64,000 nt of DNA from a virus: positions 1-64,000 of IMG/VR virus record IMGVR_UViG_3300005805_000055. The stretch is one strand, 5' to 3'. Positions 6,001-63,998 of this stretch are shown here, piece after piece. Position 1 is the first letter of the stretch. Each line of letters begins with the position of its first letter. The notes below the pieces were generated by a model. The model did no database searches, was not told the origin of the DNA, and saw only the letters and a program-made list of their open reading frames with translations. Made by a program: the position numbers and the translations under genes.

Positions 6001-9000
6001 GTGGCTGATTCTCTTTTCGACAAGATTTTAAATGGCGATATCTCATTTACCGTTGCCAAGGATTCAGATGCCCAAGAGCAGGGCACTGAACTCCCTGGGG
6101 TAGCGAAGAAGGCCGTAGGAAACCCCCTAGGTGGACGTCGTGCGCTAGGTGACGTCATTGGTGGTGGATTGCGTAAGCCGCCCACTGGGATGGTCTACGT
6201 TGACATTACGGGCGCCATCGATGGTGACGAAGACGGCATTGTCTTTGAAGGTACGCCATTCAAGCGGCCAATTATCCCTCGCGCCGTCATCCCCAAGAAT
6301 GTAGCCCAGGCTCAGTCGGAAGATTCTCTACAGCGTGCCCTGAATAATGAGTCCAAGCGGCGCGGCACGGACAAGCCACGTGGTGAGATGACGGATCGTG
6401 ATGTCGCTGATCTATATCGAAGGCGCTCACAGCCAGAGGCTGCTGGTTCTCGATCACGCACGGATAGATACTCTATTGCCGAGCGTCCACTGGAAGATAT
6501 TTTGACTGACTTGGAGATGAGTGAGGATGAGAAAAACATTGCTAGACGGCAGTTACGCAGGGGTCTTGAGGATGTAAAGACGTTCATAAGGCTGTTAGAA
6601 GAGGCGGATCTTCCGGACACATTTCATCCTGGCATAACTAGAAAACAGGCAATCGATCTTCTGAAATCAATCCAAATTGGCGTTAGCTCAAATGGTGTAC
6701 CGGTTATCTCCTTCGACCCACATCCATTGTTTTCTGGCTATGCGGATAGGGAGAGAAACTGGCTTTCTATCGAAGCGCCAAGTGTCGACAAAATTCGGGA
6801 GTTTATTGATTTCTTGAGACCATATATTTCAGTGAGACCATATATTTCAGATAGAAAACAACCGTACAAGAAGCCCGGTGGAGCACCTACGGCGCAAGAT
6901 GTATTTTTATCTCGTACACTCGATGGCCTTGCTGGAGGTCTTATAGATGAAGATAAGATGCCAGCAATTGATGGTGATGAACTTTATGAACTAAATAATA
7001 AGTTTGCTACTGATTTGCAGAATGATAAAAATTTCCCATCAGAACTGTCAGACGCTTTATTGGATATTTTGCGAAAATCTCAGAAAACACCCACTTCGGT
7101 ACCTGACTTAATTTTAAGTTCAATAATAAATCCAAATAAATTAATCTTACACGATGGCGTTGATCACATGTCTACTGGTCGTGGATTTGACAGACATGGT
7201 GAGTGGGCGGCACTTATAGCTGGAATGAAAACAAATGTTGATTATGTAAATGACACATATGACGAAAAACTTAGCGATAATGATGTGCGTTTACTTAACA
7301 TAGATTATTTCCGACTACGTGGTGGGCTCTCCATACTACAAATGCAAATAGATCCAGAAAAACTCAAATTATTCTCGGAGTATCGAGATCTGGATAAGCA
7401 ATCAAGCGAGATGTCATATGAGGATGCCATTAGACGCATGCAATCAGGTGACGATGAGTTGGATAAGAAAATGCGTGAAATACAGGGGAAGATTAAAGAT
7501 TTAGATAACTTACTTGATGATATAAATCTATTTTTAGATGATACAAACGCTGGTTATGTTGTTTCGGCGTTGGAAGATCGTGGTGTCGAGTCACCGATGG
7601 ACATACTTGATCCAAGAGATGAATCAGGTAATTTTATAAATGGCAGCAAATCTACAACTGCTAGATACATAAATATTAATAATACAAAGACCGAATTGTT
7701 CAATGCTGCCGCCGAAGAGCAATCTAGGTCAACTATGCATGGGTCTAAATCACGCACAGATAGATACTCCATTGTCGAACGTCCCCTGGACGACATTTTG
7801 ACTGACTTGGAAATGAGTCAGGGGGAGCGTGAGGTGGCCAGGGATGTACTAGAGCGCTCACAGGATAAGTTACGCAAACTTCGTGAACTTCTTGCGGATG
7901 AAGACGTTCCCGCATTCATGCACCCTGGAATGACTCGTGAAGAAGCACTAGCATTCATAGATTCAATAAAGCTGTCTGTGTCGTCCAATGGTGTCCCAGT
8001 TATAACATTCGATAGGTTACCGTATATAAAATCGATACTTGGAGACATTGACCCAATCGGTGATGATAGAAACTGGGAAACCGTTGAAGCATTAAATATT
8101 CCGCAGTTAAGAAATTTGATTCAAGTAATAATGTCTTCACCAGAACTTGATCCAGAAATAGTTGACTCCCTGGATCCCGATATTCTTGATAGTTTGCCCG
8201 AGGGAGAAGCATTCGCTGCACGCGACGAACTAACAATAGAAGCACTTATAAAAACTAGGCAATCCGCAGCTGATGAACTTGGCATATCTCATGATGCAGT
8301 ACGCGGAATATCTTTCTATGGAATAGCATTGAGTCAAGGTGCCTATATTCAAGAAAAACTTGGGATACGTAGAGTTGACCTTATTGGTAGTGGTGGTGCT
8401 GATGTTATCACTGAGTTAATGTCGCATTTACTCGATATTGGATCAGCGTTTGATTCATATCATGACACCATGGAACATTTTGGCCAAGGTCGTGGCTTTG
8501 ACAGACATGGGGAATGGGTTGCATTTCTTGCTGGCATGCTTCACGCCGACGCATGGATAAAGCGTGAGGCCGAAAGAATTGGCGAAGAATCATCGGCAGA
8601 ACTTGATGCTGTTAGAAAAACACTTATTCAAAAATATTTGTTTGATCAAGGTCTTCAACAATTGTTGAGACAGATTGAAACAAACAAATTGCAGGAAATA
8701 ATAAATTTTGCCAGAGAAAATTATGACAACGCCAATAGAGAACAGCGGCTAACTGAAGCGGTAACTAATTTACTAAAGGCATATGTTGATGTAGTTAATC
8801 GTATACGTAAAGAAAGAAATATTCAATCAGGACAGCTTAATTTTGAAGAACTATCGAAAGGTATGATTAAATTTGACGATGGGCAATATGGAAACATAGT
8901 AAAACGCATTGTCGACAGCATAGACAATTGGAGATTTTCGAATCTAGATAATTTGCCAGCAGGGGCAATCGTAGAATTTCTTAATTTCCAAGCAACAAAT

Positions 9001-15234: not shown

Positions 15235-15548
15235 GTATGTGGATTATTGATGATGATGGGATATTGGTGGATAGCAGCGATGATGGGCTAACTTCCTGGA
15301 GGACACCACTGGTTGACTCATGGTTGGCCGAAACTGACGGATATATTAGAATCACTCCCACATTTGGCATACAGTATGATCCACAAAACCCATCTCTGGT
15401 TTTGTTGGCGCACCTCCTGTACGCAAACCAGTTCACCGATGCGAGAAAAATAAAAATTGTTGAGTCGGACGTAGATCCATATGAGGCAATTGATGCGGCA
15501 ACGGGGGATAACGATAATAATGAAATAGGGCTTGAATTCAATAGGTGA
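15231..15548 (+). CDS. Small acidic protein coupled to polyprotein A (possible immunity/partner)
   Basis: ATGA overlap at 15231-15234; D/E-rich, 105 aa. Confidence 0.6.
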   Translation: MSMWIIDDDGILVDSSDDGLTSWRTPLVDSWLAETDGYIRITPTFGIQYDPQNPSLVLLAHLLYANQFTDARKIKIVESDVDPYEAIDAATGDNDNNEIGLEFNR

Positions 15549-16330
15549 TAGCCGTGGCCCCAATATCCCTTCATACTTCACCACGAGAAATTTACAACAT
15601 CGGTGATAAGGTTAAGACTCCAGCGAACCTGCATGAATTCGATAGCAATTTGACACAATCTATCGATTCCTATTTACTGGAATTTGCTTCCAGCTACGGG
15701 TATCCAGTTGGCTACGTGCAGGAACAGCACGGATCATTGGTTCAGAATCTATTCCCAATTAAGGGAAATGAAACAGAGCAAATTTCATCATCATCCAAGG
15801 TACAGCTTGAATTACATACGGAAACTGCTTTTCATCCATGGAAGCCGGATGTACTTATCTTATTCTGCTTGAAGGGTGACCGAAGGGCCGAAACAACCCT
15901 ATCAATACTGTCTGATATTCTTCCTAAATTGAGCAATGATACTATCAATATATTGAAGCAAGAAAGATTCCTAACGTCAATAGACGCAAGTTTTCGTAAT
16001 GCTAAGCAGCCAAATCGTCAAATACAGATGTCCATACTTAGTGATGACTGCTTATCAATGACATTTGACCAATACCTTATGAAGGGAATCGATGTTGAGT
16101 CACGCGAAGCACTTGAGCAATTTAGACAAGCTGTGATTAGTAGGATGATGGGCCTTGCGCTTACTCAGGGTGATATTTTGGTGATCGATAATCACAAAGT
16201 CATACACGGTCGAACTGCATTTACTCCAAGGCATGACGGAACTGATAGATGGCTCAAGCGAGTCATGGTGAGAAGGGAATTGCCGCCACTAGATCAAATG
16301 TCTGGATCCGTGATTACGACTATTCTTTGA
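15545..16330 (+). CDS. Clavaminate-synthase-like (TauD/TfdA family) 2OG-Fe(II) oxygenase
   Basis: LELHTETAFHP..PD...LFCL, IDN..VIHGRTAF.PRHDGTDRWLKR: H-x-E...H triad typical of AsnO/VioC/CAS. Confidence 0.85.
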   Translation: MIAVAPISLHTSPREIYNIGDKVKTPANLHEFDSNLTQSIDSYLLEFASSYGYPVGYVQEQHGSLVQNLFPIKGNETEQISSSSKVQLELHTETAFHPWKPDVLILFCLKGDRRAETTLSILSDILPKLSNDTINILKQERFLTSIDASFRNAKQPNRQIQMSILSDDCLSMTFDQYLMKGIDVESREALEQFRQAVISRMMGLALTQGDILVIDNHKVIHGRTAFTPRHDGTDRWLKRVMVRRELPPLDQMSGSVITTIL

Positions 16331-16958
16331 TTAAGAATCCATTCGGATTAGAAATATTGTTTTCCCCAAATAAGTCACATAGTCGTGCCATGACGCTGAA
16401 CTTTTCTTCAGCTAAGTGCATTACTTCATCGTGACATTGCTCAATAGATGTGGACATAGTGGCAATCACATCACCTTGACGCATTGATGAATTAAATACC
16501 TCAAACTCAACAGCTAGTTCGCTCCATGTATTGTGAATGATCAGCATGGGGCCATTGTTTTCGTTGGCTTGATTTAAATGTTCGAGTATCTCATCATGAG
16601 ATAGGTGGTAACCCATAGCCACAAATGTTGCCATATCTACTGACATTCTTGATGATGGATCAACAACTACGTCATAAGCAAATATATTAGCCTTATATCC
16701 AAACAACTTTATTGTGTCGCTGATATATGCGGTCAATCCACCCTCAAGCGCGCCAATTTCAATTACTGTAGTCGGGCGTATTGAATCGACCACTAGGCGA
16801 ACTGCATTCAAGTAGTTGGGCTCAAATGGAAGCGTTCGTCCCATATAACGATTTCTGACGGCCCCACTTTTGACCATGAGTGCGTGTTCGTTCTCAACGT
16901 ACGGTCCAGAAAACGTACGTTCTGAAGGCTTTTTTAGGTATTCCGCTTCAGTGAACAT
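16320..16958 (-). CDS. CmcI (cephalosporin hydroxylase)-like methyltransferase-fold protein
   Basis: YMG...IRPTTVIEIGALEGG...DLFGEN...NPNGFL. Confidence 0.6.
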   Translation of the reverse strand: MFTEAEYLKKPSERTFSGPYVENEHALMVKSGAVRNRYMGRTLPFEPNYLNAVRLVVDSIRPTTVIEIGALEGGLTAYISDTIKLFGYKANIFAYDVVVDPSSRMSVDMATFVAMGYHLSHDEILEHLNQANENNGPMLIIHNTWSELAVEFEVFNSSMRQGDVIATMSTSIEQCHDEVMHLAEEKFSVMARLCDLFGENNISNPNGFLIKE

Positions 16959-17014
16959 TCATCAATTATAGTGCCTAAAATGGAGGTTCGCGTGTTGTAG
17001 AAGTGTAAATACAT

Positions 17015-17088
17015 GCCCCAGTAACTCAATCGGATAGAGTACCGGCCTTCTAAGCCGTTAGTTGTAGGTTCGAGTCCTGCCTGGGGCG
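17015..17088 (+). tRNA. tRNA-Arg (anticodon TCT, reads AGA)
   Basis: Acceptor GCCCCAG/CTGGGGC, anticodon loop CTTCTAA, T-loop GTTCGAG; CCA not encoded. Confidence 0.92.
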
Positions 17089-17093
17089 CAAAT

Positions 17094-17165
17094 GCCCTCG
17101 TAGCTCAGTGGATAGAGCAACGGTTTCCTAAACCGTGTGCGCAGGTTCGATCCCTGCCGGGGGTA
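17094..17165 (+). tRNA. tRNA-Arg (anticodon CCT, reads AGG)
   Basis: Acceptor GCCCTCG/CGGGGGT, anticodon arm ACGGT-TTCCTAA-ACCGT, T arm GCAGG-TTCGATC-CCTGC; CCA not encoded. Confidence 0.93.
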
Positions 17166-17167
17166 CT

Positions 17168-17722
17168 TCAGTCAAAGAAAAACACCTGGAATAGTCGTCC
17201 ATTGTTCATGTCTGTCCCGAAGTATTCAGAGGCACCGTGAATGTTACGTGCGTCAAAAATGATTAGCCGATTGAAGACGTTGCCAATTGTATCCACTAAA
17301 TCAAACTTTGATTTGTCATAAAATCCGATATCGCCAAAAACATCTTGGCCATTGAAATCATTAGCATTTCTCAGGCCGGTTGCTCGATGTGCAAATAGTG
17401 ATGTTCCTGATGAGTATGGGGCATCTGGTGTTAGATACAGTACGCCTGCCCAAGTCTGAAAATCACAGTGATAAACAAGCTTATCTTCTGCGGTGCAATA
17501 CTGAAATTTTGAGCACGCGCCATAAGTTTCCGTCCATCGTGTTATGGGGAATCCCATAATTCTCTCAAATTTTTCACGCAGTCCAGGGAAATCATATTGC
17601 TTAACAGTGCGCTTACCTTTGTGGTAATTGCTATCTTCGTAGAATTCTTCGCCCAGGATCAGGTTGCGAACAGAAGTCGGGTCATCGTAGAAATCATCGA
17701 CAACGATAATTCGTTTTTTCAT
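17168..17722 (-). CDS. 2OG-Fe(II) oxygenase (DUF6445-like)
   Basis: IIVVDDFYDDP..VR, H-C-D, WAGVLYLTP, GTS, FNRLIIFD...HG. Confidence 0.75.
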   Translation of the reverse strand: MKKRIIVVDDFYDDPTSVRNLILGEEFYEDSNYHKGKRTVKQYDFPGLREKFERIMGFPITRWTETYGACSKFQYCTAEDKLVYHCDFQTWAGVLYLTPDAPYSSGTSLFAHRATGLRNANDFNGQDVFGDIGFYDKSKFDLVDTIGNVFNRLIIFDARNIHGASEYFGTDMNNGRLFQVFFFD

Positions 17723-17740
17723 ATGTCGAACTATAGCGTC

Positions 17741-18155: not shown

Positions 18156-20618
18156 TCAGTCTCCAAGTTGCCAGGTGTTATCCCCGCCACTATCAGATGG
18201 AGCAATGATGGAGATTTGGCGCTTGGGTTTTGTTGCTCTGTCACGATTCTTATTGGGCACAACAGTCCCATCTGATGACATTTGGGTTCTACGTCTATTT
18301 TGCGGTGTAGCCCTATCGCGATTTTTATTAGGAACTACGTCTCCACTTGAAGTTGTTGTTGGTTTTGGGCTAGCGGTCGGTACCTTAGACCTACGCCTTT
18401 CTTCAACATCGGCAGAACCACTAGCAATAGATGAACTCTGTGGTGGTGTGGCCCTATCGCGATTCTTGTCTGGAATAACAGTACCATCAGACGTTGTACG
18501 TGGTCTGGCATTGCTGTTTGGTGTAGCCCTATCACGATTCTTATCTGGAACAACGGTTCCATCAGCGGTCATCCGTGGTTCTTGTGGTTTATTCTCACGA
18601 CGATTTCTGTAGAAATCACTCATTCGCTTGTCATCTTCTCGAACCATATCTGCTGGAATGTAGTCACCAGTTGCTGAGATCTTTCCTCCACCTGGAAGAC
18701 GTCCTGGATTCCAGTTCGTGTCCTCGCCAGTCTCGAGATTTTCCTCAGCTTCAGCCATGAGGTTGCCAAATCTGCGTCCATCAAATCCACGACGCGTAAG
18801 GTCTTCGCGTATTGCTCCTCTTTCGCGAGTATCTGCAGAGCCAGAATCGGTCATCCATCGCTTGGGTTGTCCTTCTGCTCTTCTTTCTTGCATATCGGCG
18901 GAGCCATCGCGACCCACACGACCCTGTGGTAAGGATCTTCTGTCACGATTCTTGTCTGGTCGAATATCTCCTTCTGCGGTTTCGTTTTGTGCTCGATCAG
19001 CAGCACCCGAACGAGTTCCTTGAGTATTTGTTCTTCTGTCCCTATTCTTATTCGGAATAACATCACCTTCGCGCGTAATTCTGGTACGACGTGCACGTTC
19101 ACGTGCTTCGCGACGGCGGCGATAATAGTCGCTCATGCGCTTATCATCCTCGCGAACCATGTCGGGTGGTATGTATGTGCCATCAGCTGCAATCTTTCCG
19201 CCATTAGGCAACCGCCCTGGATTCCAGTTTGTTTTATCTCCTGGCTTCAAATTGGCGATTTGATCTCGCATGAGGCGACCAAATGCATTCCAGTCAATTC
19301 CAGAATCATCGAGAGTATTGCGGATAGCGTTCCGTTCTCTCGCATCAGCTGAACCCACATCGGTACTGCGACGTTTCTTTTTATCTTTGTCTTGTGTTGG
19401 CCGAGCGTAATCGGTGCCCTCTTGGATGGTTCCATCGCCATCCCTGTCCACTGCATTGGGGTCATAGTTTGATTGTGTCGATGTTGACCCACCACCACTA
19501 TTTGGTTCCTGTTGTTGTTGTGGTCTACTGCCAATTGTTCCAGCAGAACCAGCAACTGGCTTACCAAGTTGCTTAACCATGTGTTCGCCTGCGCTTAAAA
19601 GATCTTTCTTCTTCTCCGCATTCTTTAGGCGACGATACTTATCCAAGAGACGGCGACCCTTAATGCCAAGCTTCAGGGCGGCTGCACGTGTTTGAGGAAC
19701 TGGCTCGCCCCATGCTGCAGCTGATAATGCTAGACGTGTTGGTCTCCCCTTTTCGTCCTGCATTGGTCCTCTTGGATTAGAGAAGAACCTGACGAGGAAA
19801 GATCCCTTGCGACGCATTTTCTCAGGAGTATCGGCTGGACCCTTCACTCCAGGTTTAAGATTAGATCCTTCAGTTCTGGCAAAATATTTACGACCAGCTG
19901 CTGTTAATCCGCCCTTGGGATCACGCAGGATTGGCTTCTTCGCTGCCTTCTCTTCGATTGCGTTGCTGTCCTTGCGACCACGACGACGCTTCTTTCCTGT
20001 TAGTGACCTACGGAGATACGCTCCGGCAGTATCAAAGAGCCACTTTGCCTCATTGATTGTTTCATCGGAGTCGTCAGGGAACATGATGTCGAATTCTTCA
20101 TTACTTAGTGAATTAATGAACTCAGAAGCATCCATTTCTTTTTGGTCAATATCGAGGAAAGGATACGTCTTTTCTTCTTTTTCCTCAGTAATTGGACCGC
20201 CAACAATCCATGCATCACATGTTCTTGACGCAGCGCATTTGAAGTCAAATGCCTCGCAGTAACCAAGATCTCCAGCCTCAATAACATCCCACGCAGAGTT
20301 TCCTTCTTCGTTTCCGAGGCCATCCTCGATGCATTCCATAATGCGTGGAGTTTTAATGAATGCAGCGCAATTACCACAAAGCTGTTTCTTCGACTCGCCT
20401 ATGGTGACTTTCCAGCGGTCAGATTTTGCTTTCCAAAACGTTTCATTAGCCATCTTTGGATTGAGTGGGCCGTATCCAGCTGTATCAATACAATTCTGAC
20501 GATTCTTGAGATTCTCTGCTATGTCACGAGTTGCGAGTGGGCATCGTCCACCCTCAGCCTTGATATCTACATCGGGGTTCTCAAGAACACGTATTTCCTT
20601 GATACTGAAGATATCCAT
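18156..20618 (-). CDS. Multidomain head-associated protein: Cys-rich domain, DUF6321-like domain, DxDGDG motif, R/D-rich repeats
   Basis: CGNC...GYC...FKC...TCDAW; PKGGLTAAGRKYF...SFL.RF...PTRLALS; YDPNAVDRDGDGTIQEGT; repeated PxKNRDR. Confidence 0.7.
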   Translation of the reverse strand: MDIFSIKEIRVLENPDVDIKAEGGRCPLATRDIAENLKNRQNCIDTAGYGPLNPKMANETFWKAKSDRWKVTIGESKKQLCGNCAAFIKTPRIMECIEDGLGNEEGNSAWDVIEAGDLGYCEAFDFKCAASRTCDAWIVGGPITEEKEEKTYPFLDIDQKEMDASEFINSLSNEEFDIMFPDDSDETINEAKWLFDTAGAYLRRSLTGKKRRRGRKDSNAIEEKAAKKPILRDPKGGLTAAGRKYFARTEGSNLKPGVKGPADTPEKMRRKGSFLVRFFSNPRGPMQDEKGRPTRLALSAAAWGEPVPQTRAAALKLGIKGRRLLDKYRRLKNAEKKKDLLSAGEHMVKQLGKPVAGSAGTIGSRPQQQQEPNSGGGSTSTQSNYDPNAVDRDGDGTIQEGTDYARPTQDKDKKKRRSTDVGSADARERNAIRNTLDDSGIDWNAFGRLMRDQIANLKPGDKTNWNPGRLPNGGKIAADGTYIPPDMVREDDKRMSDYYRRRREARERARRTRITREGDVIPNKNRDRRTNTQGTRSGAADRAQNETAEGDIRPDKNRDRRSLPQGRVGRDGSADMQERRAEGQPKRWMTDSGSADTRERGAIREDLTRRGFDGRRFGNLMAEAEENLETGEDTNWNPGRLPGGGKISATGDYIPADMVREDDKRMSDFYRNRRENKPQEPRMTADGTVVPDKNRDRATPNSNARPRTTSDGTVIPDKNRDRATPPQSSSIASGSADVEERRRSKVPTASPKPTTTSSGDVVPNKNRDRATPQNRRRTQMSSDGTVVPNKNRDRATKPKRQISIIAPSDSGGDNTWQLGD

Positions 20619-20809: not shown

Positions 20810-20812
20810 ATG

Positions 20813-20897: not shown

Positions 20898-22211
20898 TCA
20901 GGCGGGAGCGCCGTCGAAGTCCACCTTCACGAACGCCTCGGGGCGCTTCACGGCGAGAGCGAGACGCTGTTCGGCCAACACCACGATGGCGTTACGGACG
21001 AAGAAGTCGCTGTGCTGCTCGCTGATGCGGATCGAAGCCTGCTCGCGGTCGTACAACTGAGCGCCAGTTCCGAATGCGCCGACAAGAGCGGTTCCTTCGG
21101 GGATGGCGGGGGTCTCAACGACGGGGATGCGCCACAACCTGGGCTCGCCACCGAGAGCTACAGACACTGCAACGAGGTACTGACCGTTGGTGTCCTTGGC
21201 AAGCTCAATGTCTTCCCAATCGTTGGGGTGCATTACGACGCCGGTTGGCTCGTAGTAGGCAAGGAAGGCCAAGGTAGCGGCGCGACGGATCGCGTCAGCC
21301 TTGGTGTCCGCCACTGGTTCGGTAGCGCCATCGGACCAGGCATATTCCTGGATGCCGGTGGTGCTGAGTACGCCAGTGAGGTTCTCGCCAGTGCCATCGC
21401 CGCTCAGAATCTGAGCGTCTTCCTGGAGGCGCAGACCGTACATCAACTCGTTGTCGATGATGCTACGGAGCTGTGGCTCGTCGGCCAACACATTGCGGTG
21501 TGCAGCTTCCCAGTGGGCGATGGTGCGCACTGGAGCCTGCTCACCAACGAAGGTGAAGGATGACTGTGGCTTGACACCGAAGTTGGTGTTGTCGTTGTTG
21601 CGGTCAGCAACGGCGCCAGCAGCGTTGGTGAATCCGGTCATACGGAAGTACTCAATCACAGCAGCGCTTGTGGTGCGTACTGGGAAGAGGTCACGAACAC
21701 GCTTGGTGCGCATTGGGGGAACAACGATGGGGTCACGCTGGATGGTGCCGAACGAACCGGGGGTTCCGGTGGGGAGGGCAGAGTAAACGTCCTTGACGTT
21801 GTAGGCGCCAGCGGTAAGGGTCTTGGCGGTGATGAATGGAGCAGGCATGTTTGCACCATTGCGGCCACCGTTCAGGCTCTTGAACTCGGTGGAGTTGATG
21901 AACTCATCACCGATTGACTTGAAGCTTGTAGCCTGTGCAAAGTTTGCACCAGCAGCTGCAGCGGCTGCAACTGAGTGACCTGCAGGCTCGCCGCCCCAGC
22001 TCTCGACTTCGCGAAGACCTTCGATGCCCTCGATGAGGCCCTTGATCTCCTTGATGTCGCGCATATTCTTATCGAATGCTGACTTCTGGTCGGTGCTGAC
22101 TACTACGGTGCCGTTCTCTACCCTAAAGGAGTCGGCAATGGCCTTGTTATCGGCCATCTTTTGACGAAGTGCGCTTTGCAGTTCGTTCAGGCGGGAAGTG
22201 TCTTCTGACAT
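20898..22211 (-). CDS. Major capsid protein, HK97 fold
   Basis: N-terminal coiled-coil delta domain; KPQS...VRTIAHW...LAD.PQL.SII...ED.QIL.GDG; VMHPNDW..I...KD.NGQY; LWRIPVV; F.RN...LAEQRLALAVKRPEAF; GAGG RBS. Confidence 0.95.
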   Translation of the reverse strand: MSEDTSRLNELQSALRQKMADNKAIADSFRVENGTVVVSTDQKSAFDKNMRDIKEIKGLIEGIEGLREVESWGGEPAGHSVAAAAAAGANFAQATSFKSIGDEFINSTEFKSLNGGRNGANMPAPFITAKTLTAGAYNVKDVYSALPTGTPGSFGTIQRDPIVVPPMRTKRVRDLFPVRTTSAAVIEYFRMTGFTNAAGAVADRNNDNTNFGVKPQSSFTFVGEQAPVRTIAHWEAAHRNVLADEPQLRSIIDNELMYGLRLQEDAQILSGDGTGENLTGVLSTTGIQEYAWSDGATEPVADTKADAIRRAATLAFLAYYEPTGVVMHPNDWEDIELAKDTNGQYLVAVSVALGGEPRLWRIPVVETPAIPEGTALVGAFGTGAQLYDREQASIRISEQHSDFFVRNAIVVLAEQRLALAVKRPEAFVKVDFDGAPA

Positions 22212-45300: not shown

Positions 45301-48300
45301 TCTTGGTGTGGCGCGCTTCTTCCGCGATCCTGGCGATGCTAATGCTTCTTTGATTTTGGAAACATTTTGTGCAATTTCTACTGCTGCACGATACGCAAGT
45401 GCATCGTCAGCAGAAGACGCTGATGGTGCTCCAGGAAAATTACTGAAGCCATTTTCATCCATAATGTTTATGCCATCTTCACGAGTGAAGACGAGAGATG
45501 TGGATTTCCCATGTTTATTTTCGAAATCACGACGTAGCTGTGCGGCACCCCTGCGCTGCCTAATTATTTCGGCACTAGGAACGATGTCGGACAAACGACC
45601 ATCATCGACCATCTCGACTATCGCGCTTTGTTCATCGACTGAAAAACCATTTTCATTAAGTGCCGATTTCACATTTTGATTTGAGTCAAGAACTGATTTA
45701 AATGAGTAGCTTTCATCAGCGTTTACTAGCTTGGCAGGTACACGTATTTGCTCAATTTCAGTGAAGTCAATACCACCAGGGATAAGTGTTTCAAAATTAT
45801 CACGTGACTCAGATTTACTTGATGGCTTGAGTAGGTCTGATACAACATTTCTCTGAGTTGAAGCAATTGCCCTGGTTATGAATTCATTACGTTGTTCACG
45901 CGTTGATGTAGTAAAGTCAAACATGGCAAGCGTTATGTCATCCCTATCTTGTGACAAAATAGGGGACATCGAATCTCTGTTTTTAATTGCTGCACCCCGT
46001 GAATACGATGAGCGTTGAGAAACTTCTGGTAGAGCAACTATTTCAATTTTTTCACGACCCCCAACTACGCGCGATGCATATTGATTGGTGCCAATAAATC
46101 CATTTCGGGTACGCTCTGCTATTTCTGCATCAAGAATTGCTTGTTCTGACCTATGGACCAGTCGCCCACTAATTGTTCTTTCGCTTGGATCAATGTCTGG
46201 AGAGAAACCGACAGATGTCTCAAAAGCTTCTCGCACCTGAGAAGCACTAGAATTTGGTTTAATTTCTGATGGCGTACGAATACGACCGTTTTCCATTAGG
46301 TCGCGTAGGCCACTGTCGTCCATATCCACACGAATGCGTTCATCGAAGCTATTGTGAAGATTCAATAGTGCATTAGACACCATGTCAGTTATCTCTTCCG
46401 GAGTCGACGATGCAATGAGATCTTGTATTTGCTGAGTCATATAATCCGGGAGTGGCTCGCGCATATCTGTGTCGCGAGCATCAATTAGTTGCTTTATCTC
46501 CATGACAGACTCAAGCATTGAATCCGTATTGAGTCTCTTTACCTGAGAGCGTGATGCTGGCGGGAAAAGCGTGCTAACTGACTCTGGGTCCTCAATTGAT
46601 GCCTGGTTTATGTTTTCGACAAAATCATTATCTACATCAAATGGACGACTTGATGATTCAGAATATGACTTAGATAGCTCAACATTGCGAGAACGTCCAC
46701 GTTTGGCTGCTCCGATCTCACCGCTTACACCTCTTGTTGTTGACTTTGATCCAATGGGACCATTAAATTCCGAAATTTCCTGATTTGATTTTGCTATTTC
46801 AGCATTTAGAGTTTCGCGGATACGCCTTGCTTCATCGGCATCCCCGCCGGTTAGTGTCTGAGTTGCTTCATCTAGATCGTCAACCATTCTTGAAAGCGTG
46901 TCGACCGATGTTTCTTGACGATGTGGAATTATTGTTATCGTTCCATCTTCATCAATATCTGTGATAACAAACTCTCCAGGTGGAAGTATTAGGTCTGAAG
47001 TTTCGCCATCTGTGTAATTTTTTTCAGTTAAACCACGGCTTCCAGACGGAGCAATAACCCTGATGCGTCGTGTTGCCGTCAACTCACTGGATCCCATCAC
47101 CTCTGAGTCGGCATGGGAAATCATTCGCCCGCGTATCATTTCGGTTGAATCTATTATTTCGCCTTGTCCAAGACCATCGAAGACTTCGCTCTCTGGTACA
47201 CCAAATGTCGCCTCAACGTCTTGGTCAAGCATTGACTTGTCTAATGCGCGGAGTGTTGGTGCGATAGATCTAGTAATTTCACTATCAAGTAATGGTGATT
47301 CAACATCTGGACTCGCTTCAGCTAGTGTTTCACCGCTAATTTCAGCATCACGACGTGCCTTTGCTGACGCTTTAACTGCATCAGACATAGCTTCTGGACC
47401 ATCCATTGCTCTTGCTGACTGACGCTCATTTATTGCTACTGCACCAGAAATTGCCTTACTCTCATCCTCTTTTAGTTTTGCATCAGTAGCCTCTCTCGTT
47501 CTCTTCCCGTATGAAGATGGATCGGTAGCTGCATTAGGGCGTACTTTTCTTGCCTTTCCATCAACTGTCTTGTCAGCAGGGGTGTCGGTTACAACGTGTG
47601 ACTCAGCCTCTATTGCTCTTCCCGGCTGATATTCATTCCCAGATACTGACCATCCATCCTTGCCAGTGGTCGAACGTCCAGCATGCTTGGCAATGGTGCG
47701 CTGATAATGGATTAGTTCATCCTCATCAACTTCAACAACGTCACCTTCTCTTTGTGTGCGTGCTTTTTCTAAAGAACGCCTGCGCATTGATGTTGCAGTT
47801 TTTGATGACAAAACACTACTTGTACCTTCCTGCTTGGATAGATACTTTCCTGGCCGCTGATCCGGCTGTCTCTTTGAAGCGGCAACAGCTGCTCGCCGTT
47901 CATCGGTATACTGAGCGCGTTCCTGATTCTCACGAATGACTTGTCGCATGGCCTTCATACCTAGCCATATTTTTGCCTGCTCATCTTTTGTAAGCTGCCT
48001 ACTTCTAGACTGCTCAATAAGATCATCAACTTGTGTTTTTATCTTTTCAAATCTGGCATCAAGTTGATCAGGCGTCATTGACTTATATGCCTGTGTTGAA
48101 CCAAATGGATCAGCAACTGAATCACCGGCTCCACCAACGGACGTATCATCAGCAGTAAGCCCAAATACCTCATCTATGAATGTTTTTTGCTGGCTTCGGT
48201 CATTTCCTGGTCGGAGCCCCTTGGCCGTTGGTGCAACCTTCCACTCGGTTGCTCCGTCCTCAGCAATGTAGCCATTTATTCTGCGCCACAAATCCCTGGA

Positions 48301-51300
48301 TGCCTTGTCTTGCCTTGTTTCTGGTGTCTTCGGAGTTTCTGGAGTTTCTGGTGCTTCTCCGTCTGGAGTTGGTTTAGTCTTTTTTGTTGGAGTCTTTTTT
48401 GTTGACTTTTTCTTCTTCGGCTTTGATGCTTTTGGCGTTTCAAGATAAATATTGACCGTTACATTTATTGGCGTATCTCCATCTATTTCTTCTCCATTGA
48501 TAATTATTGGTCCAACAATAATATCTCCAGTATTGACGATTATATTTCCATCACCGTTGACGTTAATATTTGTTGTGCCACTATTATTTACAACAGTATC
48601 ACCGACAGTAACGGTGACCTTCTTTCCACTACCCCCACCGTCACCGGGCGTTTTGCCATCGGGCGTTTTGCCATCAGGAGTTCCGCCATCGGGTGTTCCG
48701 GGTGTTCCTGGCGGCAAGGCGGGCGGCTCGTCTGGCGTAACGTCGGGAGTTTCTTCTGGAGTTGGTCTCGGTCCAAAATACCTAGATGTGCCAGCACCTG
48801 ATGGAATGACCTTGTCCATATATTCAAGTTGGCGGTCAATTTCCGGACCACTTATTACACCAGTTTTACGCAAAGCATTCAGCTCTACATGAGCTTCGGT
48901 GAGGGCAACTTGAAGCTCTGGACTCAGATTGCTACCCATTTGCCACGCACCAACTTTGTCCTGGTAGTAATTTCCGCTTATTAGGTGCAACATATTGTCT
49001 TCTAGTTCACCAACACCCGTAGGTGGGAAACCTGAAAGGAATTGGGGGTTAGAAATAACACCCTTTGAAAGAGCATCCATCCATTCTTTTGATGTCCATT
49101 TCGATGTATCACCTGGCAGCACTCTTGTAACACGCCCATTTTCGAAAATTGGATAACCACCATTTTCGGCAGCAAAACGTTTTATAAAATTTTCAGCTGC
49201 TTTGTATTGAAGCACATGCCCGAATTCATGATATGCGTCATGGCGTGCACGAGCCTTAAAAATTGCAGCAAATAAATCCCCATTCAGTGCATAGTGGCGC
49301 GCGGCACTCATATCAGCGCCATACATTGCACCACGACTAAATTTAGTCCATGCCGCATCTATTACTTCTGTGCCAACACCAAGACGTTTAGCAATATTTT
49401 CTTTAAGAATGGTCAGATCTGCGCCAGAAGGCATCTTGAAACCTCGTAAACCATATTGACTGAGAATTTCGCTTATTCTCCTAGGATCCGCTTCTCGTAA
49501 TTCAGTCATGAGTCGTTGCACTTCAGCTTCTATCGCATTTTCAGGAGATGCTTTTATTGATCTGGCATACGTATCCGCATCCATACTTTCAGTAAGAAGT
49601 TCTTCCATTGCAGTTAGTTTCTGCATCTCATTCATAAACATTGATTCCACGGCTTCGAAATCTAGACTTACAGAAATTCCATAAGGATGTTTTTGTGTAA
49701 GTTCTTGGGCAATTGTTGTTATTGCCTCAGACTCCAATAATGGCTTAAGGACGCGGCTCCAAGAGTTTGAGAACCAGTCGATCTTTGCGGTTCCAGTAGG
49801 ATCATCTGGAAGTGGAGCAACCATTCCTTGCGTATGCATAAAGTCGTAAGCTATGTTTTTTTTCTCACGCGGATCTGGTGTATATGCTCGCAATTCCGTA
49901 ATTCCAGCAAACGCATCAGGATTATCGTTGCGTGAATCAATTAGTGCTTCGAGGTTCCCTTGTCGAACATCCGTATTTGCGCGAATCATAAAATTACGCA
50001 AACCCTCGTATCGCTGAAATAAATCAGGGCGCTTTGCTAAAATTTCATCACGTATACGTTTATCCTTTATGTCAGAAACATAAACGTTCGTCTGTCTTCC
50101 GTTGCCAAAATCATGCGTTCCGAGTAATTGATCTGCCATGAGCGCATCAGTGGAGTCGCCAATAGCTTGATGGTAGGCGGCAATATTATCCTTAAAGGAC
50201 ATATTTCCATCCCACGTGAATGGCTTATATGACCAGTTTCCTGTTTGTTTATCAACCTCAACTATCATCATGTCTTCGACTAGTCCGCGCCACTCTGGAC
50301 CTTCACCCTTTTCGCGCAGTATTTCTAAACCCATCAAATGACGAAGATTCGTCCTTTTTATTATTTCCTGATCATCGGGATTATTGAGATCGAAACCCTC
50401 TGCAGCTATGCGCTCATCTATCGAGAGCCCATTAGCATCACGCAAATCACGAAGAAATTCTTCGTTAAGCATGTCGACTTCATCTTGACGTTTTTTTGAT
50501 TTTTCATGTGTATTAATGTTTTTGCGTGCTTCATCAAAGCGCGACTGAGCTGATCCAGTAATTTCACGTATACGTTCTTCGCTTCTAATCTGGTCTGCGC
50601 GTGCATTTATATTATTCATCCAGCTTCTAACACGACCAACTGCCTGTGCTGGATCTATGGCCATGCAATTGCTCATATCGATATCCGTGAACTGGTTGGC
50701 ATTGGGCGTGCCTGGTGGACACCGCATTTTTCCGTTGGCATCGATTACTAGCCCACGAGCGACAGCACGCTGCAGGCTGAGCCTTTGACTAGGTAGCAAT
50801 TCGCTAATTGTTTTCCCTAGTTTCTTTTCATTTACCGGAAAGAGCTGTGTTGTAGCGATAATTCCATTTAGGACATTCCTCGTGATGATGGAAAAGTCAT
50901 CACTTTTGGATTCCAAATTCCCTTTTTCTACAAGATCGGGCCTATCTGTCATTCCGTATGGAGTGACCTCCATCGCCTTGACAATCTGCTTTGTCGGTTG
51001 TCCATCGGGTCCATTTGCGTAGAAGTAGACAATGGGCTTGGGGCGCTTCTTGTATTCGTCTATGAAGGCTGTCCAGCCAGCAGCTTTTTCTTCGTCAGTA
51101 AGTTTCCGAACCGGATCAACCCAGCCCCATTTCGCACCTTCATCGGAAGTCATTTCGCGGAAGTTGGTGTGTAGTTTTAATACCTGACCAGGTTTTCTGC
51201 GAGCACGAGGATTCCAGTCAAGCTTCAACTCTGGAACATAATTATCAGAGTTCTCTCCAGCTTCGCGAGTTCCCTTTTTGGATCCACTCGACTTCAGTCC

Positions 51301-51474
51301 CTCGTCAAGCGCCTTGACGATCATGTCCGTATCTAGATATGCGAACCTCGTCAATACATCTTGTCGTGCCCGAAACTTAACAGCGGCTAAATCTGTTTTA
51401 GACAGAGATGAACTAATTAAGTCGTGATTTGAGTATCTACGAGGGATACCTTTACCCGCCATCGCAGGCTCCAA
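42367..51474 (-). CDS. Giant polyvalent protein E (3035 aa): RCPxG motif, zincin, degenerate ART-like domains, hydrophobic hairpin, DPF repeats; 3 GSKSTT sites
   Basis: RCPPGTPNANQFTDIDMSNC; YHEFGH...TEAHVE; IAPSGSRGL...LILPPG; start may be the ATG at 51462. Confidence 0.85.
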   Translation of the reverse strand: MEPAMAGKGIPRRYSNHDLISSSLSKTDLAAVKFRARQDVLTRFAYLDTDMIVKALDEGLKSSGSKKGTREAGENSDNYVPELKLDWNPRARRKPGQVLKLHTNFREMTSDEGAKWGWVDPVRKLTDEEKAAGWTAFIDEYKKRPKPIVYFYANGPDGQPTKQIVKAMEVTPYGMTDRPDLVEKGNLESKSDDFSIITRNVLNGIIATTQLFPVNEKKLGKTISELLPSQRLSLQRAVARGLVIDANGKMRCPPGTPNANQFTDIDMSNCMAIDPAQAVGRVRSWMNNINARADQIRSEERIREITGSAQSRFDEARKNINTHEKSKKRQDEVDMLNEEFLRDLRDANGLSIDERIAAEGFDLNNPDDQEIIKRTNLRHLMGLEILREKGEGPEWRGLVEDMMIVEVDKQTGNWSYKPFTWDGNMSFKDNIAAYHQAIGDSTDALMADQLLGTHDFGNGRQTNVYVSDIKDKRIRDEILAKRPDLFQRYEGLRNFMIRANTDVRQGNLEALIDSRNDNPDAFAGITELRAYTPDPREKKNIAYDFMHTQGMVAPLPDDPTGTAKIDWFSNSWSRVLKPLLESEAITTIAQELTQKHPYGISVSLDFEAVESMFMNEMQKLTAMEELLTESMDADTYARSIKASPENAIEAEVQRLMTELREADPRRISEILSQYGLRGFKMPSGADLTILKENIAKRLGVGTEVIDAAWTKFSRGAMYGADMSAARHYALNGDLFAAIFKARARHDAYHEFGHVLQYKAAENFIKRFAAENGGYPIFENGRVTRVLPGDTSKWTSKEWMDALSKGVISNPQFLSGFPPTGVGELEDNMLHLISGNYYQDKVGAWQMGSNLSPELQVALTEAHVELNALRKTGVISGPEIDRQLEYMDKVIPSGAGTSRYFGPRPTPEETPDVTPDEPPALPPGTPGTPDGGTPDGKTPDGKTPGDGGGSGKKVTVTVGDTVVNNSGTTNINVNGDGNIIVNTGDIIVGPIIINGEEIDGDTPINVTVNIYLETPKASKPKKKKSTKKTPTKKTKPTPDGEAPETPETPKTPETRQDKASRDLWRRINGYIAEDGATEWKVAPTAKGLRPGNDRSQQKTFIDEVFGLTADDTSVGGAGDSVADPFGSTQAYKSMTPDQLDARFEKIKTQVDDLIEQSRSRQLTKDEQAKIWLGMKAMRQVIRENQERAQYTDERRAAVAASKRQPDQRPGKYLSKQEGTSSVLSSKTATSMRRRSLEKARTQREGDVVEVDEDELIHYQRTIAKHAGRSTTGKDGWSVSGNEYQPGRAIEAESHVVTDTPADKTVDGKARKVRPNAATDPSSYGKRTREATDAKLKEDESKAISGAVAINERQSARAMDGPEAMSDAVKASAKARRDAEISGETLAEASPDVESPLLDSEITRSIAPTLRALDKSMLDQDVEATFGVPESEVFDGLGQGEIIDSTEMIRGRMISHADSEVMGSSELTATRRIRVIAPSGSRGLTEKNYTDGETSDLILPPGEFVITDIDEDGTITIIPHRQETSVDTLSRMVDDLDEATQTLTGGDADEARRIRETLNAEIAKSNQEISEFNGPIGSKSTTRGVSGEIGAAKRGRSRNVELSKSYSESSSRPFDVDNDFVENINQASIEDPESVSTLFPPASRSQVKRLNTDSMLESVMEIKQLIDARDTDMREPLPDYMTQQIQDLIASSTPEEITDMVSNALLNLHNSFDERIRVDMDDSGLRDLMENGRIRTPSEIKPNSSASQVREAFETSVGFSPDIDPSERTISGRLVHRSEQAILDAEIAERTRNGFIGTNQYASRVVGGREKIEIVALPEVSQRSSYSRGAAIKNRDSMSPILSQDRDDITLAMFDFTTSTREQRNEFITRAIASTQRNVVSDLLKPSSKSESRDNFETLIPGGIDFTEIEQIRVPAKLVNADESYSFKSVLDSNQNVKSALNENGFSVDEQSAIVEMVDDGRLSDIVPSAEIIRQRRGAAQLRRDFENKHGKSTSLVFTREDGINIMDENGFSNFPGAPSASSADDALAYRAAVEIAQNVSKIKEALASPGSRKKRATPRASVNESLIMGSKSTTRGPGGDSASKARRRAGTVSRVIGSNRVQKLLERAGLSEENAEATQFVGELAAAFAAGGPAGLATVFARRAGRDIADLGLREALDRGWLSPDQARRVEQQLLDRVAPEGLPERLTEAIEKGAKLATSDETRERAREVATAAREFIEDNERIQGVAQRAREVGGSVRERLQRRRAGRDSTTRDTDLVESASSDDPFATMPDDPFTMPVSDPFTGAANDPFEMPFDPFATDSAVVGSKSTTRIGSVSSKPVAYTKTPVFGRPNDNPTLPGFGYPDESFGTRQLHRPVYEINGKKIMFGPRTWGRTELNFDDDVEVIPVDPYAITGLDPLSPEGKEMALLFFSAVIGHNEWLSDKEGRASEGNSGLVPALLYAASRGDDEARRELERLAQRGDELMAETQAKFRQETVRNIGGEPSSIDWTQKPDVMVRVGKDENGLPIRRPMGIDDIFIVHQTSYEPEIDEDGNTVLRPTGDFEQNHLEQDKPSEDQSGINPHYDRSTIHFATNAVVSGHGARPTPSGKTYAIIVPLRDVLDANPGALENLLVVDTWFSPPIGEGLKIPLKSGQVVEIPGFAEYIDELDQEFIDRGYTIEAGTLFRDGQAIFNDDTTEYKQRRADASRAHDAEVRRISGQALAEVGRSHNNSEEYEVKMTPGGEYGAFSRDHDIRMDALAIEDIPAEYPEYEGGVDSGLHHMTGSNNGEMTTIFMDVPGRAITRITETEYARYWAMSDGARQRFFRQGQYETGTDDDPTPPITNAEDDFDSSPDAEFVRGSLSRTSPLSVFAESIGDPVEEMRKLQTIVPEEYVSRMEQMKSVLRNMSPAERAKYGATLATLLTGIYSKTNLPGSRQLDNYGDVVKKMFDPENIASAFEIIEALSGKSSNKAGEIPLLGGMKKSDLIKIGKLLGIDNSSANIDKIMGKLLAIFKFGKKAASDSIDTAEVERLFTALFENMIGIPNVGIDTGKETK

Positions 51475-51494: not shown

Positions 51495-53324
51495 TCAGCT
51501 ATCCAGATCAACTTCTGAAGACATGAGTTCGAATTCGACTAGCGTCTTGAGGAAATCATCAGTTCCAGACTCATCACCCTCGGTAACAAGATTCTTTTTT
51601 CCGGCAAGCCATTCTGCTGGGATCATTGATTCCATACCCATATCTTTTGCGCGCTTCATGATGTGGCGCTTAGCAGCATCAACATCCTTAGCGCGCCCAT
51701 GAGCCATTATTGCATTCTTTAGATCTTCTTCAGAAGCAATTGGAAATGAGCCATCCGACATTGCTGTTCCCTCTTCGGCCATTCTCGTTCTTGTTTCATC
51801 GGAGAATGCGCGCTTCAGTGCAATTTCGGCAGCCTCTGCCTCAATGTCATCAGTCTCATCATTGGTTAGGTATTCGTCATAGCCAAGAACATGACCATCT
51901 AGAGAGACGAATGCATCGTAGGCCTTGCCATCAAATCCATCAATCTCTACCTGGTAGGCATCATGACCCTCGAAGATTGAAGGCTCAACGGCAACGACTG
52001 TTCCTGGAAGTGACTTTACGGCAATTTCTGCAGCCTCATTGAAGTCAATGAGTTCAATTTCATCCAGAATTGACTTTTGCTCGAATGCGCTGTCATCGAG
52101 TCTATGGAAACCAAGAACTTCAGCAGTTGTTCCATCGATATAGACCTCATTGACATGACCAGACTTTACCTGAACATCAACAACGAACATGTCTGCAACG
52201 GCAGAATACCCAGAGTCAATGACGTCGGCGCCCTTGAACATCGATTCCGCAAGTCCTTCAACATGCAGCAGGCCAGGCATTCCTTTTTCCGAAACGCACC
52301 CACCTGGACAATCGTCACAAATCTGCTGTCCACCTGGGTAAACCTTGCGGTCAATTGCGCACATGTAGCCATTTACTCCAATATCGGCAGACTTTGTGCC
52401 CAGCTTTCTAAGGCGAGCCATGCGCATTGCTTCCAGGTCTGGACTCATCATGTCCTCGTCCTCGCCAGCACCCATATACATGCCACCCTTGGTGGGTTGC
52501 ATTGGTGTTCCGATATCGAGAACTTCTTCGTCCTCGTCCTCTTCATCCATGGGGTCCATGCCATCATCCATCATGGACCCATCTTCTTCGTCCATCATTT
52601 CTGGCTTGCGCATTCCCATTCCCTTGACAGGGCGCTTTTTCATCATTCCATACATCTTTTCGGATGCCATGTCTTCTGACTCTTCGTCATCTTCCATCTC
52701 GGTCATCTCGTCATCTTCGGATTCAGATGGGTCTTGTTCCATGGAAGCATCGTCTTCCATTGACATCTCATCATCCTCCTCGTCCTCTTCGTATTCTTCT
52801 TCCATGCCGGGCATCATTGGCTTCATGTTTTTGCGCTTACGCCAACCCATGCCATAACCCTTTTCTGAGTCCATGCCATCTTCGCTGTCGTCAAGTTCGG
52901 GGATGCCTTCCATTTCGGCTGCAGCATCGTCCCTATTGAAGCCATTGGCCATGTCCATTGCCTTACGACGACGCATCATCATTTTGAGCTCGTCTTCGGT
53001 CGGAAGTTCTTCTTCTGCCATGTCGTCCATTGCGGCAACATCAACGGGCACCATCTTTACTTCAACAGCCATGGCACCACACTTTCCGCAGACAGTAGCT
53101 CCGGACTTGTAGCCGCATTCTCCGCCGCCAAGGCCCTTGGCGCACTTGACGACTCCACCGTCGCCATCGATTTTTACTACGGCCTTTTCGTCATAGTTCA
53201 TGTCCATTGACTCCTTATAGTGCATTGACTTGAGTAGGCATCCGTTGTGATATGTACACCCACTGCAAGGCATCATAGCCTTTCGCTGTTCAACCTGGCA
53301 GAAGTATTTTTCCTCGATTTTCAT
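51495..53324 (-). CDS. Acidic Met-rich scaffold/maturation-like protein with Cys clusters, two PepSY-like domains and a DGSFPI head-maturation-type C-terminal domain
   Basis: E/D/M low-complexity core; IDFNEAAEIAVKSLPGTVVAVE...YQVEI...DAFVSLDGHVLG; MSDGSFPI...DLKNAI.AHGRA...KRHI.KRA...IP.EW. Confidence 0.65.
   Translation of the reverse strand: MKIEEKYFCQVEQRKAMMPCSGCTYHNGCLLKSMHYKESMDMNYDEKAVVKIDGDGGVVKCAKGLGGGECGYKSGATVCGKCGAMAVEVKMVPVDVAAMDDMAEEELPTEDELKMMMRRRKAMDMANGFNRDDAAAEMEGIPELDDSEDGMDSEKGYGMGWRKRKNMKPMMPGMEEEYEEDEEDDEMSMEDDASMEQDPSESEDDEMTEMEDDEESEDMASEKMYGMMKKRPVKGMGMRKPEMMDEEDGSMMDDGMDPMDEEDEDEEVLDIGTPMQPTKGGMYMGAGEDEDMMSPDLEAMRMARLRKLGTKSADIGVNGYMCAIDRKVYPGGQQICDDCPGGCVSEKGMPGLLHVEGLAESMFKGADVIDSGYSAVADMFVVDVQVKSGHVNEVYIDGTTAEVLGFHRLDDSAFEQKSILDEIELIDFNEAAEIAVKSLPGTVVAVEPSIFEGHDAYQVEIDGFDGKAYDAFVSLDGHVLGYDEYLTNDETDDIEAEAAEIALKRAFSDETRTRMAEEGTAMSDGSFPIASEEDLKNAIMAHGRAKDVDAAKRHIMKRAKDMGMESMIPAEWLAGKKNLVTEGDESGTDDFLKTLVEFELMSSEVDLDS

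Positions 53325-63998: not shown

Follow-up and report, generated by a model that had tools for sequence, protein, structure and literature searches.

A recurring hexapeptide between the modules of giant phage proteins: a candidate processing site that differs from lineage to lineage

The viral record IMGVR_UViG_3300005805_000055 encodes six giant proteins (A to F) in which one hexapeptide, GSKSTT or a close variant of it, recurs at the borders of modules, and this raises the question of what the peptide does there. The record is a single viral contig of 93,761 bp (G000; estimated completeness, 63%), and the window analysed here is its first 64 kb, so that positions in the window are also positions in the contig. 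The six giants take up 43,125 nt, or 46% of the contig. We propose, with a probability of about 0.6, that GSKSTT is the G000 version of a lineage-specific junction peptide, which would serve as a processing site of giant precursors. The comparisons were made with 20 related contigs of 84-160 kb, which together with G000 form a set of 21 genomes.

Distribution of the hexapeptide

A preliminary description of this DNA had listed 29 copies of [GAS]S[KR]S[STRH]T, and all 29 are present, in frame, in six open reading frames (ORFs). Each copy is given here by its lowest coordinate. Giant A (6001-15234, plus strand; 3077 aa), a protein of the polyvalent cargo type, has eight sites spanning 6445-12018: GSRSRT at 6445, GSKSTT at 7642, GSKSRT at 7741, GSKSTT at 9274, GSKSRT at 9373, GSKSST at 10483, GSRSRT at 10633 and GSKSTT at 12001. 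The other giants are on the minus strand. B (25505-28996; 1163 aa) has two sites, at 27656 (aa 442) and 26624 (aa 786), and C (28984-37545; 2853 aa) has five, at 35725, 33067, 31705, 30946 and 29521. D (37570-39216; 548 aa) has a single site at 38257 (aa 315). There are three in E (42367-51474; 3035 aa), at 46735, 45256 and 44542, and the degenerate GSLSRT that had been reported at 42940 in the same protein is also present. F (53412-64493; 3693 aa), which starts past the end of the window, has ten sites in the window, at 63906, 62760, 61887, 61824, 60987, 59724, 58980, 57795, 56808 and 55383, and an eleventh at 63999-64016 that straddles the window end. The sequence AGRSTT at 47665 in E was considered as a further site and is probably not one; the residues aligned with it in relatives do not form a motif.

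Over the whole contig there are 31 copies, 30 in the six giants and one in a tape-measure-like protein (aa 616), where a degenerate GSKSAT is also found at aa 672. In the six frames of the window the only further match, SSRSST at 46868, is read antisense to E and is a chance match. When 14,204 residues were shuffled 2000 times the mean number of copies was 0.04 and the maximum was two. Conservation at the level of the peptide, which had been claimed from the codons used for Ser, is borne out: Ser is encoded by both TCN and AGY codons, and the codons for Gly, Lys and Thr vary as well. This mixture of codons suggests that selection acts on the peptide. The consensus can be extended to [ILV]-x-G-S-K-S-T-T-[RK], with a weaker preference in the flanks than in the core.

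The preliminary description had not found the motif in the capsid protein, enzymes or regulators. Over the whole contig it is lacking in the capsid protein, portal, protease, terminase, sheath and all small ORFs. The tape-measure-like protein (contig 85069-89679, beyond the window; plus strand; 1536 aa) is encoded after the sheath gene (82076-83800) and two small ORFs, and a long ORF downstream of the sheath gene is in the position of a tape measure gene. Pfam and PHROG gave no match for it, and neither did tblastn against 50,697 phage records. Because it shows no similarity to known tape measure families, we call it tape-measure-like only. The protein consists of a conserved N-terminal part of about 550-600 aa, a Gly-rich stretch that contains the junction peptide, and a variable C-terminal part of about 900 aa.

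Within the giants the sites had been described as falling between domains, and no copy lies within any domain detected by Pfam. In F these domains are ArdC-N, MPTase-PolyVal (139.6 bits), RNase_T/DEDDh and KTSC, and the order is a site, ArdC-N with MPTase, a site, the DEDDh exonuclease and two sites; KTSC is also located between sites. C has pentapeptide repeats (aa 1005-1210) and DUF3721, and B has DUF7178 in its third segment and the sequence HEIGH in its first. The ADP-ribosyltransferase (ART) domain that had been assigned to the second segment of B (aa 445-788; 26633-27664, minus strand) was not confirmed, and there is no Pfam match; the nearest language-model clusters of this segment are ADP-ribosyltransferase families (score 0.91), which we treat as a lead only. 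Scans with Pfam at E values up to 1 gave no usable family for modules E1, C1, A2, B1 and B2, and an AlphaFold2 model of B made without an alignment (mean predicted local distance difference test score (pLDDT), 32) was of no use for domain boundaries.

The pieces between sites are 150-1600 aa long, and there are in addition five short spacers of 21-50 aa between paired sites. Pro is enriched 1.8-fold in the flanks of the sites, and the flanks slightly exceed the background in hydrophilicity (p=0.03). The ends of high-scoring segment pairs coincide clearly with site positions in F, where 44% of ends are within 25 aa of a site compared with 13% for random sites; in the other giants the effect is weak. 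A contains the same module three times (aa 152-550, 584-972 and 1128-1425), the first segment of C has homologues in all 20 relatives, and the first 1577 aa of E are without a site, with portions of this block homologous in 15-20 of the 20 relatives. The modules are heavily shuffled from genome to genome.

The giants are also nearly free of Cys. There is none in A, B, D or F, and the six together contain 7 in about 14,400 aa; across the 21 genomes the Cys content of cargo ORFs and giants is 0.28%, compared with 1.27% in the remaining proteins.

Replacement of the peptide in related phages

Relatives were collected by back-translated searches of IMG/VR, in which the protease had 308 relatives and the capsid protein 395. 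Five of the genomes in the set are complete, three by direct terminal repeats (G011, G014 and G018) and two by a CheckV estimate of 100% (G016 and G019). GSKSTT is found in none of the 20 relatives. De novo k-mer counts show, instead, that nearly every relative has its own recurring peptide in its giants. These include GMRSRS (51 sites in one genome), SSRSKR, STRSSR (35), GM[SR]SS (44), GLRS, G[MLF]RSR, GF[AS]S[RS]T, GLAS[TR], RGMASR and R[LF]SSG, and [IVL][ST]G[RA]M in the outgroup. The R[LF]SSG type is found in G009, G013, G018 and G019, the G[ML]RS type in G010 and G011, and the [IV][ST]GxM type in G014, G016, G017 and G020. The motifs can be placed in a common register, [G/R/S]-[M/L/F or S/T]-[K/R/A/S]-S-x, in which one Ser is nearly invariant; in the [IV]SG[RA]M lineages this central Ser is replaced by Gly. 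The type of motif follows the portal tree. Phages whose capsid proteins are 84-89% identical use GSKSTT, STRSSR, SSRSKR and GMRSRS.

In 17 genomes the local motif is almost confined to the ORFs between the protease and capsid genes, one extra giant resembling A, and the tape-measure-like protein. Counted against 11,000-40,000 residues of other proteins per genome, there are no stray copies in 12 of the 17 genomes, or in 14 if single-copy small ORFs of G003 and G010 are set aside. The exception is G019, with three stray ORFs, one of 2205 aa with two copies and two small ones with one copy each. Nine relatives have their own motif in the tape-measure-like protein, eight of them at aa 574-624 and G013 at aa 681.

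The different peptides occupy the same junctions. GSRSRT at aa 149 of A aligns to GLASRT in G004 and STRSRT in G006; GSKSTT at aa 1575 of E aligns to GMRSRS in G001 and SSRSQR in G002; GSKSTT at aa 573 of F aligns to TLSSGK in G009 and G018 and to RMSSGG in G013; ASKSTT at aa 864 of F aligns to GMRSRT in G001; and the site at aa 315 of D aligns to GMRSRK in G010 and GLRSRK in G011. In BLAST alignments that span the sites of G000, 26 of 46 cases (57%) have the relative's own motif no more than 10 aligned residues away, compared with 62 of 3136 control positions (2%) in the same alignments; the events counted in both figures are not independent. The comparison gives a clear indication that the peptide has been rewritten in place, over dozens of junctions and in an unrelated tail gene, with each change of lineage. 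Such concerted, lineage-specific replacement is what would be predicted by a single trans-acting reader encoded by the phage, and we consider the existence of a specific phage-encoded reader to be very probable.

The closest cultured relative, as judged by the capsid protein, is a Gordonia myophage (47% identity). In this phage an RNA ligase, a VIP2-like ART and other proteins are encoded by separate ORFs between portal and protease, with the ART in the position that corresponds to the second segment of B. The match and the separate ORFs suggest that the host of the G000 phage is an actinobacterium and that the unfused state of the genes is ancestral. There was no near relative of F in the phage collection by megablast.

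The proposed reader of the junctions

If the reader acts on the giants by cutting them, which we think is probable, the sequence of events may be as follows. The peptide would mark the borders of modules in proteins that leave the virion on infection, i.e. the six cargo polyproteins and the tape-measure-like protein. A tag near the N-terminus, like the capsid-targeting propeptide of T4, would draw each precursor into the prohead, and a phage endopeptidase would cut it at each of its junctions, in the prohead or following ejection. This would give about 35 pieces, of which about 30 would be domain-sized (150-1600 aa) and five would be spacers of 21-50 aa. The near-lack of Cys would suit unfolded passage through the tail. 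The leading candidate for the enzyme would be the HK97-type S78 prohead protease, and the chance that it is the reader falls, in our estimate, somewhat short of even.

The S78 protease gene (64517-65923, minus strand) is located 23 nt upstream of F (gap 64494-64516), between the portal gene and the giants. The protein of 468 aa matches PF04586 at aa 20-173 (49 bits against a cut-off of 21) and the PHROG 'head maturation protease' (E=2.9e-30); it has no sequence match in the PDB. H63 (VVWGHNW) and S127 (EWSIGYK) are invariant in 24 homologues, and, from what is known of the family, these two residues are the putative catalytic pair. No other maturation protease can be recognised, and every genome encodes S78. 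A fusion of S78 to the first giant was found in all 35 loci tested and in 11 of the 20 relatives. The protease ORFs of the other nine relatives are 460-881 aa long. Among the relatives examined, only G006 (460 aa) and G007 (494 aa) have the protease split off directly upstream of a giant, in the same way as G000; in all the rest the ORF is larger through fusion or extension, and is often itself a giant (1652-4736 aa). Where the two are fused, the first site comes 30-100 aa past the protease and the tag.

The tag is an element of 30-45 aa, approximately FDPNAxDGDGDGxVQEGTPFxRP, which is common to A, B, C, D, F and an 820-aa protein. It occupies aa 58-104 of A (6172-6312, plus strand; E=1.5e-20 with a hidden Markov model (HMM)), aa 6-50 of B (28847-28981, minus), aa 218-263 of C (36757-36894, minus), aa 210-255 of D (38452-38589, minus) and aa 36-81 of F (beyond the window). 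The HMM found 54 copies, spread over 17 of the 21 genomes; almost all cargo giants have the tag, ahead of the first site. In G000 this order holds for all five tagged giants (A, B, C, D and F), and a few tag-bearing proteins, the 820-aa protein among them, are free of sites. The tag looks like a calcium-binding loop. By analogy with known propeptides it is a candidate capsid-targeting element, and the order of tag, first site and cargo matches that of the capsid-targeting propeptides of T4 and SPN3US (PMC10052503).

The specificity of proteases with this fold offers a further comparison. HK97 gp5 is cut at a Lys|Ser bond (K103|S104), and herpesvirus assemblin, which has the same fold, cuts at Ala|Ser. 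Both fit the [K/R/A/S]|S of the motif register. The capsid protein of G000 (20898-22211, minus strand; 437 aa; PF05065, E=3.7e-48) has the HK97 fold with a delta-domain and does not contain the motif. It has a variable N-terminal stretch of 98 aa followed by a conserved core, and a candidate maturation site, S-F-K|S-I-G, at aa 96-101 (21909-21926), the position at which alignments to other phages begin. When own and foreign position weight matrices (PWMs) were compared on the delta-domain tails of the genomes, no tail gave a convincing match to its own motif, and partial matches were found only in the GLR/GMR lineages (G-[LF]-R-E) and the RLSSG lineages (Q-L-[ST]-S-R).

That the hexapeptide is a recognition site at which the giants are split into effectors had been proposed in the preliminary description, together with a link to the prohead protease. 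The first part is strengthened by the relatives, each with its own motif at the same junctions. The link to the protease is equivocal: the S78 gene is present and is fused to giants in relatives, but the capsid protein lacks the motif, the catalytic domain is nearly invariant and the motif extends to the tape-measure-like protein. These and several other observations weigh against the processing of giants by S78, or against processing altogether. The S78 catalytic domain (median identity 74%, with long invariant runs) hardly changes from lineage to lineage, although the motifs of these lineages have only one position in common. No alignment column in the protease, portal, capsid protein or tape measure tracks the switch of P2 to S/T in G000, G002 and G006, in a sample that is too small to carry weight. 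The tape measure is not a head protein, and a protease that stays in the prohead would not be expected to come into contact with it. No capsid protein carries its own motif at full strength (PWM score -12.6 in G000; the own-site PWM is negative on the delta-domain tail in 14 of 17), and only Lys at P1 and Ser at P1' are held in common. In 4 of the 21 genomes the motif is weak (G016 and G020) or no clear one was found (G012 and G015). The termini of cargo ORFs never mimic a cut motif, and neither partial motifs nor any hint of the scissile bond were found there. Motifs rich in Ser and Thr could equally serve as sites of modification. Finally, cleavage, the enzyme, the scissile bond, packaging and ejection are all steps that we infer from sequence, and that no cut was seen counts against the proposal.

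An AlphaFold2 model was made of a natural fusion of protease, tag and first site (locus L053; alignment of 24 rows). The mean pLDDT was 53, with 57-73 in the core and about 80-90 in two small C-terminal domains. The tag and first site are in a stretch below 50, and the site is not docked in the protease. A Foldseek search of the model against the PDB gave no significant match; T4 gp21 came only at rank 24 (E=0.46). The C-terminal region of S78, of 280 aa, is only 31% identical between homologues. Both this region and the zincin-like module E1 of giant E evolve fast enough to be the specificity element.

Module E1 (E aa 600-900; 48775-49677, minus strand; HEFGH at about aa 749-753) leads to a different enzyme. 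The junctions might be cut by a metalloprotease of the cargo itself, E1 or another HExxH module, either in the cytoplasm prior to assembly or, once ejected, in the new host. This would agree with the published proposal of processing by embedded peptidases (PMC5512222) and would account for the site in the tape-measure-like protein, since cargo and tape measure would both be within reach. E1 was found by jackhmmer, with HExxH kept, in all 15 ingroup genomes, its median identity of 25% leaves room for a change of specificity, and the block of 1577 aa that holds it has no internal site; at least one HExxH is present in the cargo of every genome. However, no E1 turned up in the six outgroup genomes, although a junction peptide still recurs in four of these, and the module matches no Pfam peptidase family, the lone functional lead being a weak language-model match (0.80). 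MPTase-PolyVal, the one clear zincin, was rejected as a universal reader, as PF18818 is missing from three genomes with strong motifs, G010, G011 and G014, whose completeness is 98-100%. The HExxH modules of the cargo may, moreover, be effectors directed at the host. We regard a cargo metalloprotease, the main rival of S78, as unlikely. It is less likely still, and in our view improbable, that the peptide is recognised and not cut, either as a site of Ser/Thr modification (phosphate, sugar or ADP-ribose) or as a docking or pause signal for the packaging or ejection of intact giants. The motifs are indeed rich in Ser and Thr with one Ser nearly invariant, there is an ART-like lead in the cargo, the motif is present only in proteins expected to be ejected (the tape measure included), and cutting is itself something that we infer. 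Modification or docking leaves unexplained, however, why the sites occur only at junctions, often as doublets 21-50 aa apart, and why the first follows a common N-terminal tag as in known propeptide systems. The replacement of the central Ser by Gly in the [IV]SG[RA]M lineages argues against a hydroxyl acceptor there, and no universal kinase or glycosyltransferase was seen.

Two further explanations dispense with a phage-encoded reader. If a host protease cut the proteins after ejection, the motif would differ with the host; every carrier of the motif is expected to enter the host, and both the tape-measure site and the lack of co-variation in the S78 catalytic domain would be explained. Yet phages with nearly the same capsid protein use four different peptides, as described above, and to our knowledge the housekeeping proteases of related hosts do not differ so sharply in specificity, which makes a host protease very improbable. 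That the peptide is a passive linker, or a by-product of recombination that promotes domain shuffling with no reader at all, we find hardly credible: the modules are extensively shuffled between genomes, but the codons vary freely so that homology of the DNA is not conserved, a linker does not need an invariant hexapeptide, and the set is replaced in concert in each lineage, in the unrelated tape-measure gene too.

Processing at the junction peptide by a phage protease would have consequences beyond this genome. If the peptide is a cleavage code, a sequence rule would split thousands of unannotated phage residues into real functional units, and in G000 would mark out about 30 candidates for injected effectors, among them modules of the anti-restriction, nuclease and ART-like kinds. 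The proposal that polyvalent proteins are processed would become directly testable. With 30-50 sites rewritten in concert in each genome, close relatives would offer a striking natural case of protease-substrate co-evolution and a set of orthogonal protease-site pairs. The site in the tape measure raises the question of where and when proteins delivered by phages mature. We put forward, tentatively and with more doubt than confidence, a broader picture of a large group of uncultured freshwater, probably actinobacterial, phages (137-160 kb) in which nearly half of the coding capacity would be in polyproteins cut by a private, co-evolving protease-site code. All sites, including that in the tape measure, would be rewritten together with the reader, and processing would take place at least partly outside the prohead, possibly in the new host cell, as a phage counterpart of the way in which RNA viruses of eukaryotes use polyproteins.

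Known systems and neighbouring genes

The prohead proteases of T4, phiKZ and SPN3US cut head and ejection proteins at short motifs with a preference for Ser at P1', as has been reported for SPN3US gp245 (PMC10052503). The system described here resembles those of T4 gp21, phiKZ gp175 and SPN3US gp245 in having a short consensus on many proteins destined for the capsid interior and a protease gene in the head module; the tag would correspond to their N-terminal propeptides, which have a targeting role and are removed. It differs from them in several respects. Their proteases belong to the gp21 family and cut after Glu (A/S/G-x-E or L/I-x-E), whereas the protease here is of the HK97-type S78 family. 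The same motif matures their capsid protein, whereas the capsid protein of G000 lacks it. Their substrates are of ordinary size and lose a propeptide, in contrast with polyproteins of 500-3700 aa with up to 11 internal sites. The motif here, additionally, changes between lineages and extends to the tape-measure-like protein.

The polyvalent proteins of phages and conjugative elements were defined by Iyer, Burroughs, Anand, de Souza and Aravind (2017), who proposed that embedded MPTase peptidases release the domains, by analogy with RNA-virus polyproteins, and named no site (PMC5512222). The giants of G000 have several unrelated conflict-related domains per polypeptide (four in F; pentapeptide repeats and DUF3721 in C; DUF7178 in B) and are encoded beside virion genes, between the portal and protease genes on one side and the capsid gene on the other. 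They are thus like the published polyvalent proteins, in which ArdC-N, MPTase, nuclease and ART-like domains are combined next to virion genes (PMC5512222). The published account has MPTase as the processing enzyme and no motif; here there is a defined junction peptide, MPTase is dispensable and S78 is fused to the first polyprotein in relatives. Large Dar proteins are directed into the head of phage P1 by a capsid localisation signal, and some undergo proteolytic processing (PMC9024508, PMC5512222). The Dar system (DarA, DarB, DdrB and Hdf) is similar in that large anti-restriction proteins are packaged in the head, but these are encoded by separate genes and have no recurring junction peptide.

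HK97 gp4 and gp5 are alike in that the protease belongs to the S78 family by Pfam, the capsid delta-domain is of about 100 aa, and a boundary of the Lys|Ser type (F-K|S-I-G in G000) is found at the start of the mature domain. HK97 gp4 stands alone as a small protein for which no cargo substrates are known, whereas the protease here has a C-terminal extension of 280 aa and in relatives is usually fused to a polyprotein of several thousand residues. Literature searches, the coverage of which was incomplete, found no published junction peptide, lineage-specific rewriting or fusion of S78 to a polyprotein. What may be new here is a defined junction peptide with lineage-specific rewriting; protease-processed virion cargo and polyvalent proteins were already known.

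Most of the giants are located between the S78 protease gene and the capsid gene, and A is outside the head module. The order on the minus strand is portal (66030-68108), S78 protease, F, a 609-aa acidic protein, E, two small ORFs, a 670-aa protein, D, C, B, a PAPS-reductase-like gene, a 359-aa protein and the HK97-fold capsid protein. The terminase, tail sheath and 1536-aa tape-measure-like ORF are downstream on the plus strand, and the contig is of the myovirus type. The acidic, Met-rich 609-aa protein (51495-53324, minus strand; 12 Cys) has neither tag nor site, and in all relatives it is kept between the giants of the F and E types, with C-termini ...EFE[LM]L.... The 670-aa protein (39206-41218, minus) has no tag, site or Pfam match; its syntenic homologues of about 650-690 aa are found in all relatives and have C-termini that end ...ILGG/LG. 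Both proteins might be scaffold or core proteins.

The site-free 820-aa protein (18156-20618, minus) adjoins the capsid gene and has the tag at aa 378-420 (19359-19487; E=3.9e-19) and DUF6321. Its N-terminus is rich in Cys, and it contains about seven tandem D-G-[TS]-V-[VI]-P-[ND]-K-N-R-D-R-[AR]-T repeats. Between A and the capsid region (15545-17722) there are a TauD-like dioxygenase, a CmcI-like methyltransferase and a DUF6445 protein (PHROG 'minor coat protein'). Two PAPS-reductase-like genes and a gene for a ParB-like nuclease/partition protein are located at 24146-25042 (minus), contig 77291-78445 (plus) and contig 74595-75443 (plus), and may form a DNA-modification or auxiliary metabolic set. 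Very long proteins with collagen-like G-x-T repeats (GATG and GPTG, 25-105 counts per genome), probably tail fibres, are encoded in G001, G002 and G004 and dominate naive k-mer counts. At 645-1526 on the minus strand there is a protein with a T5orf172/MUG113 (GIY-YIG-like) domain, which is probably a homing endonuclease.

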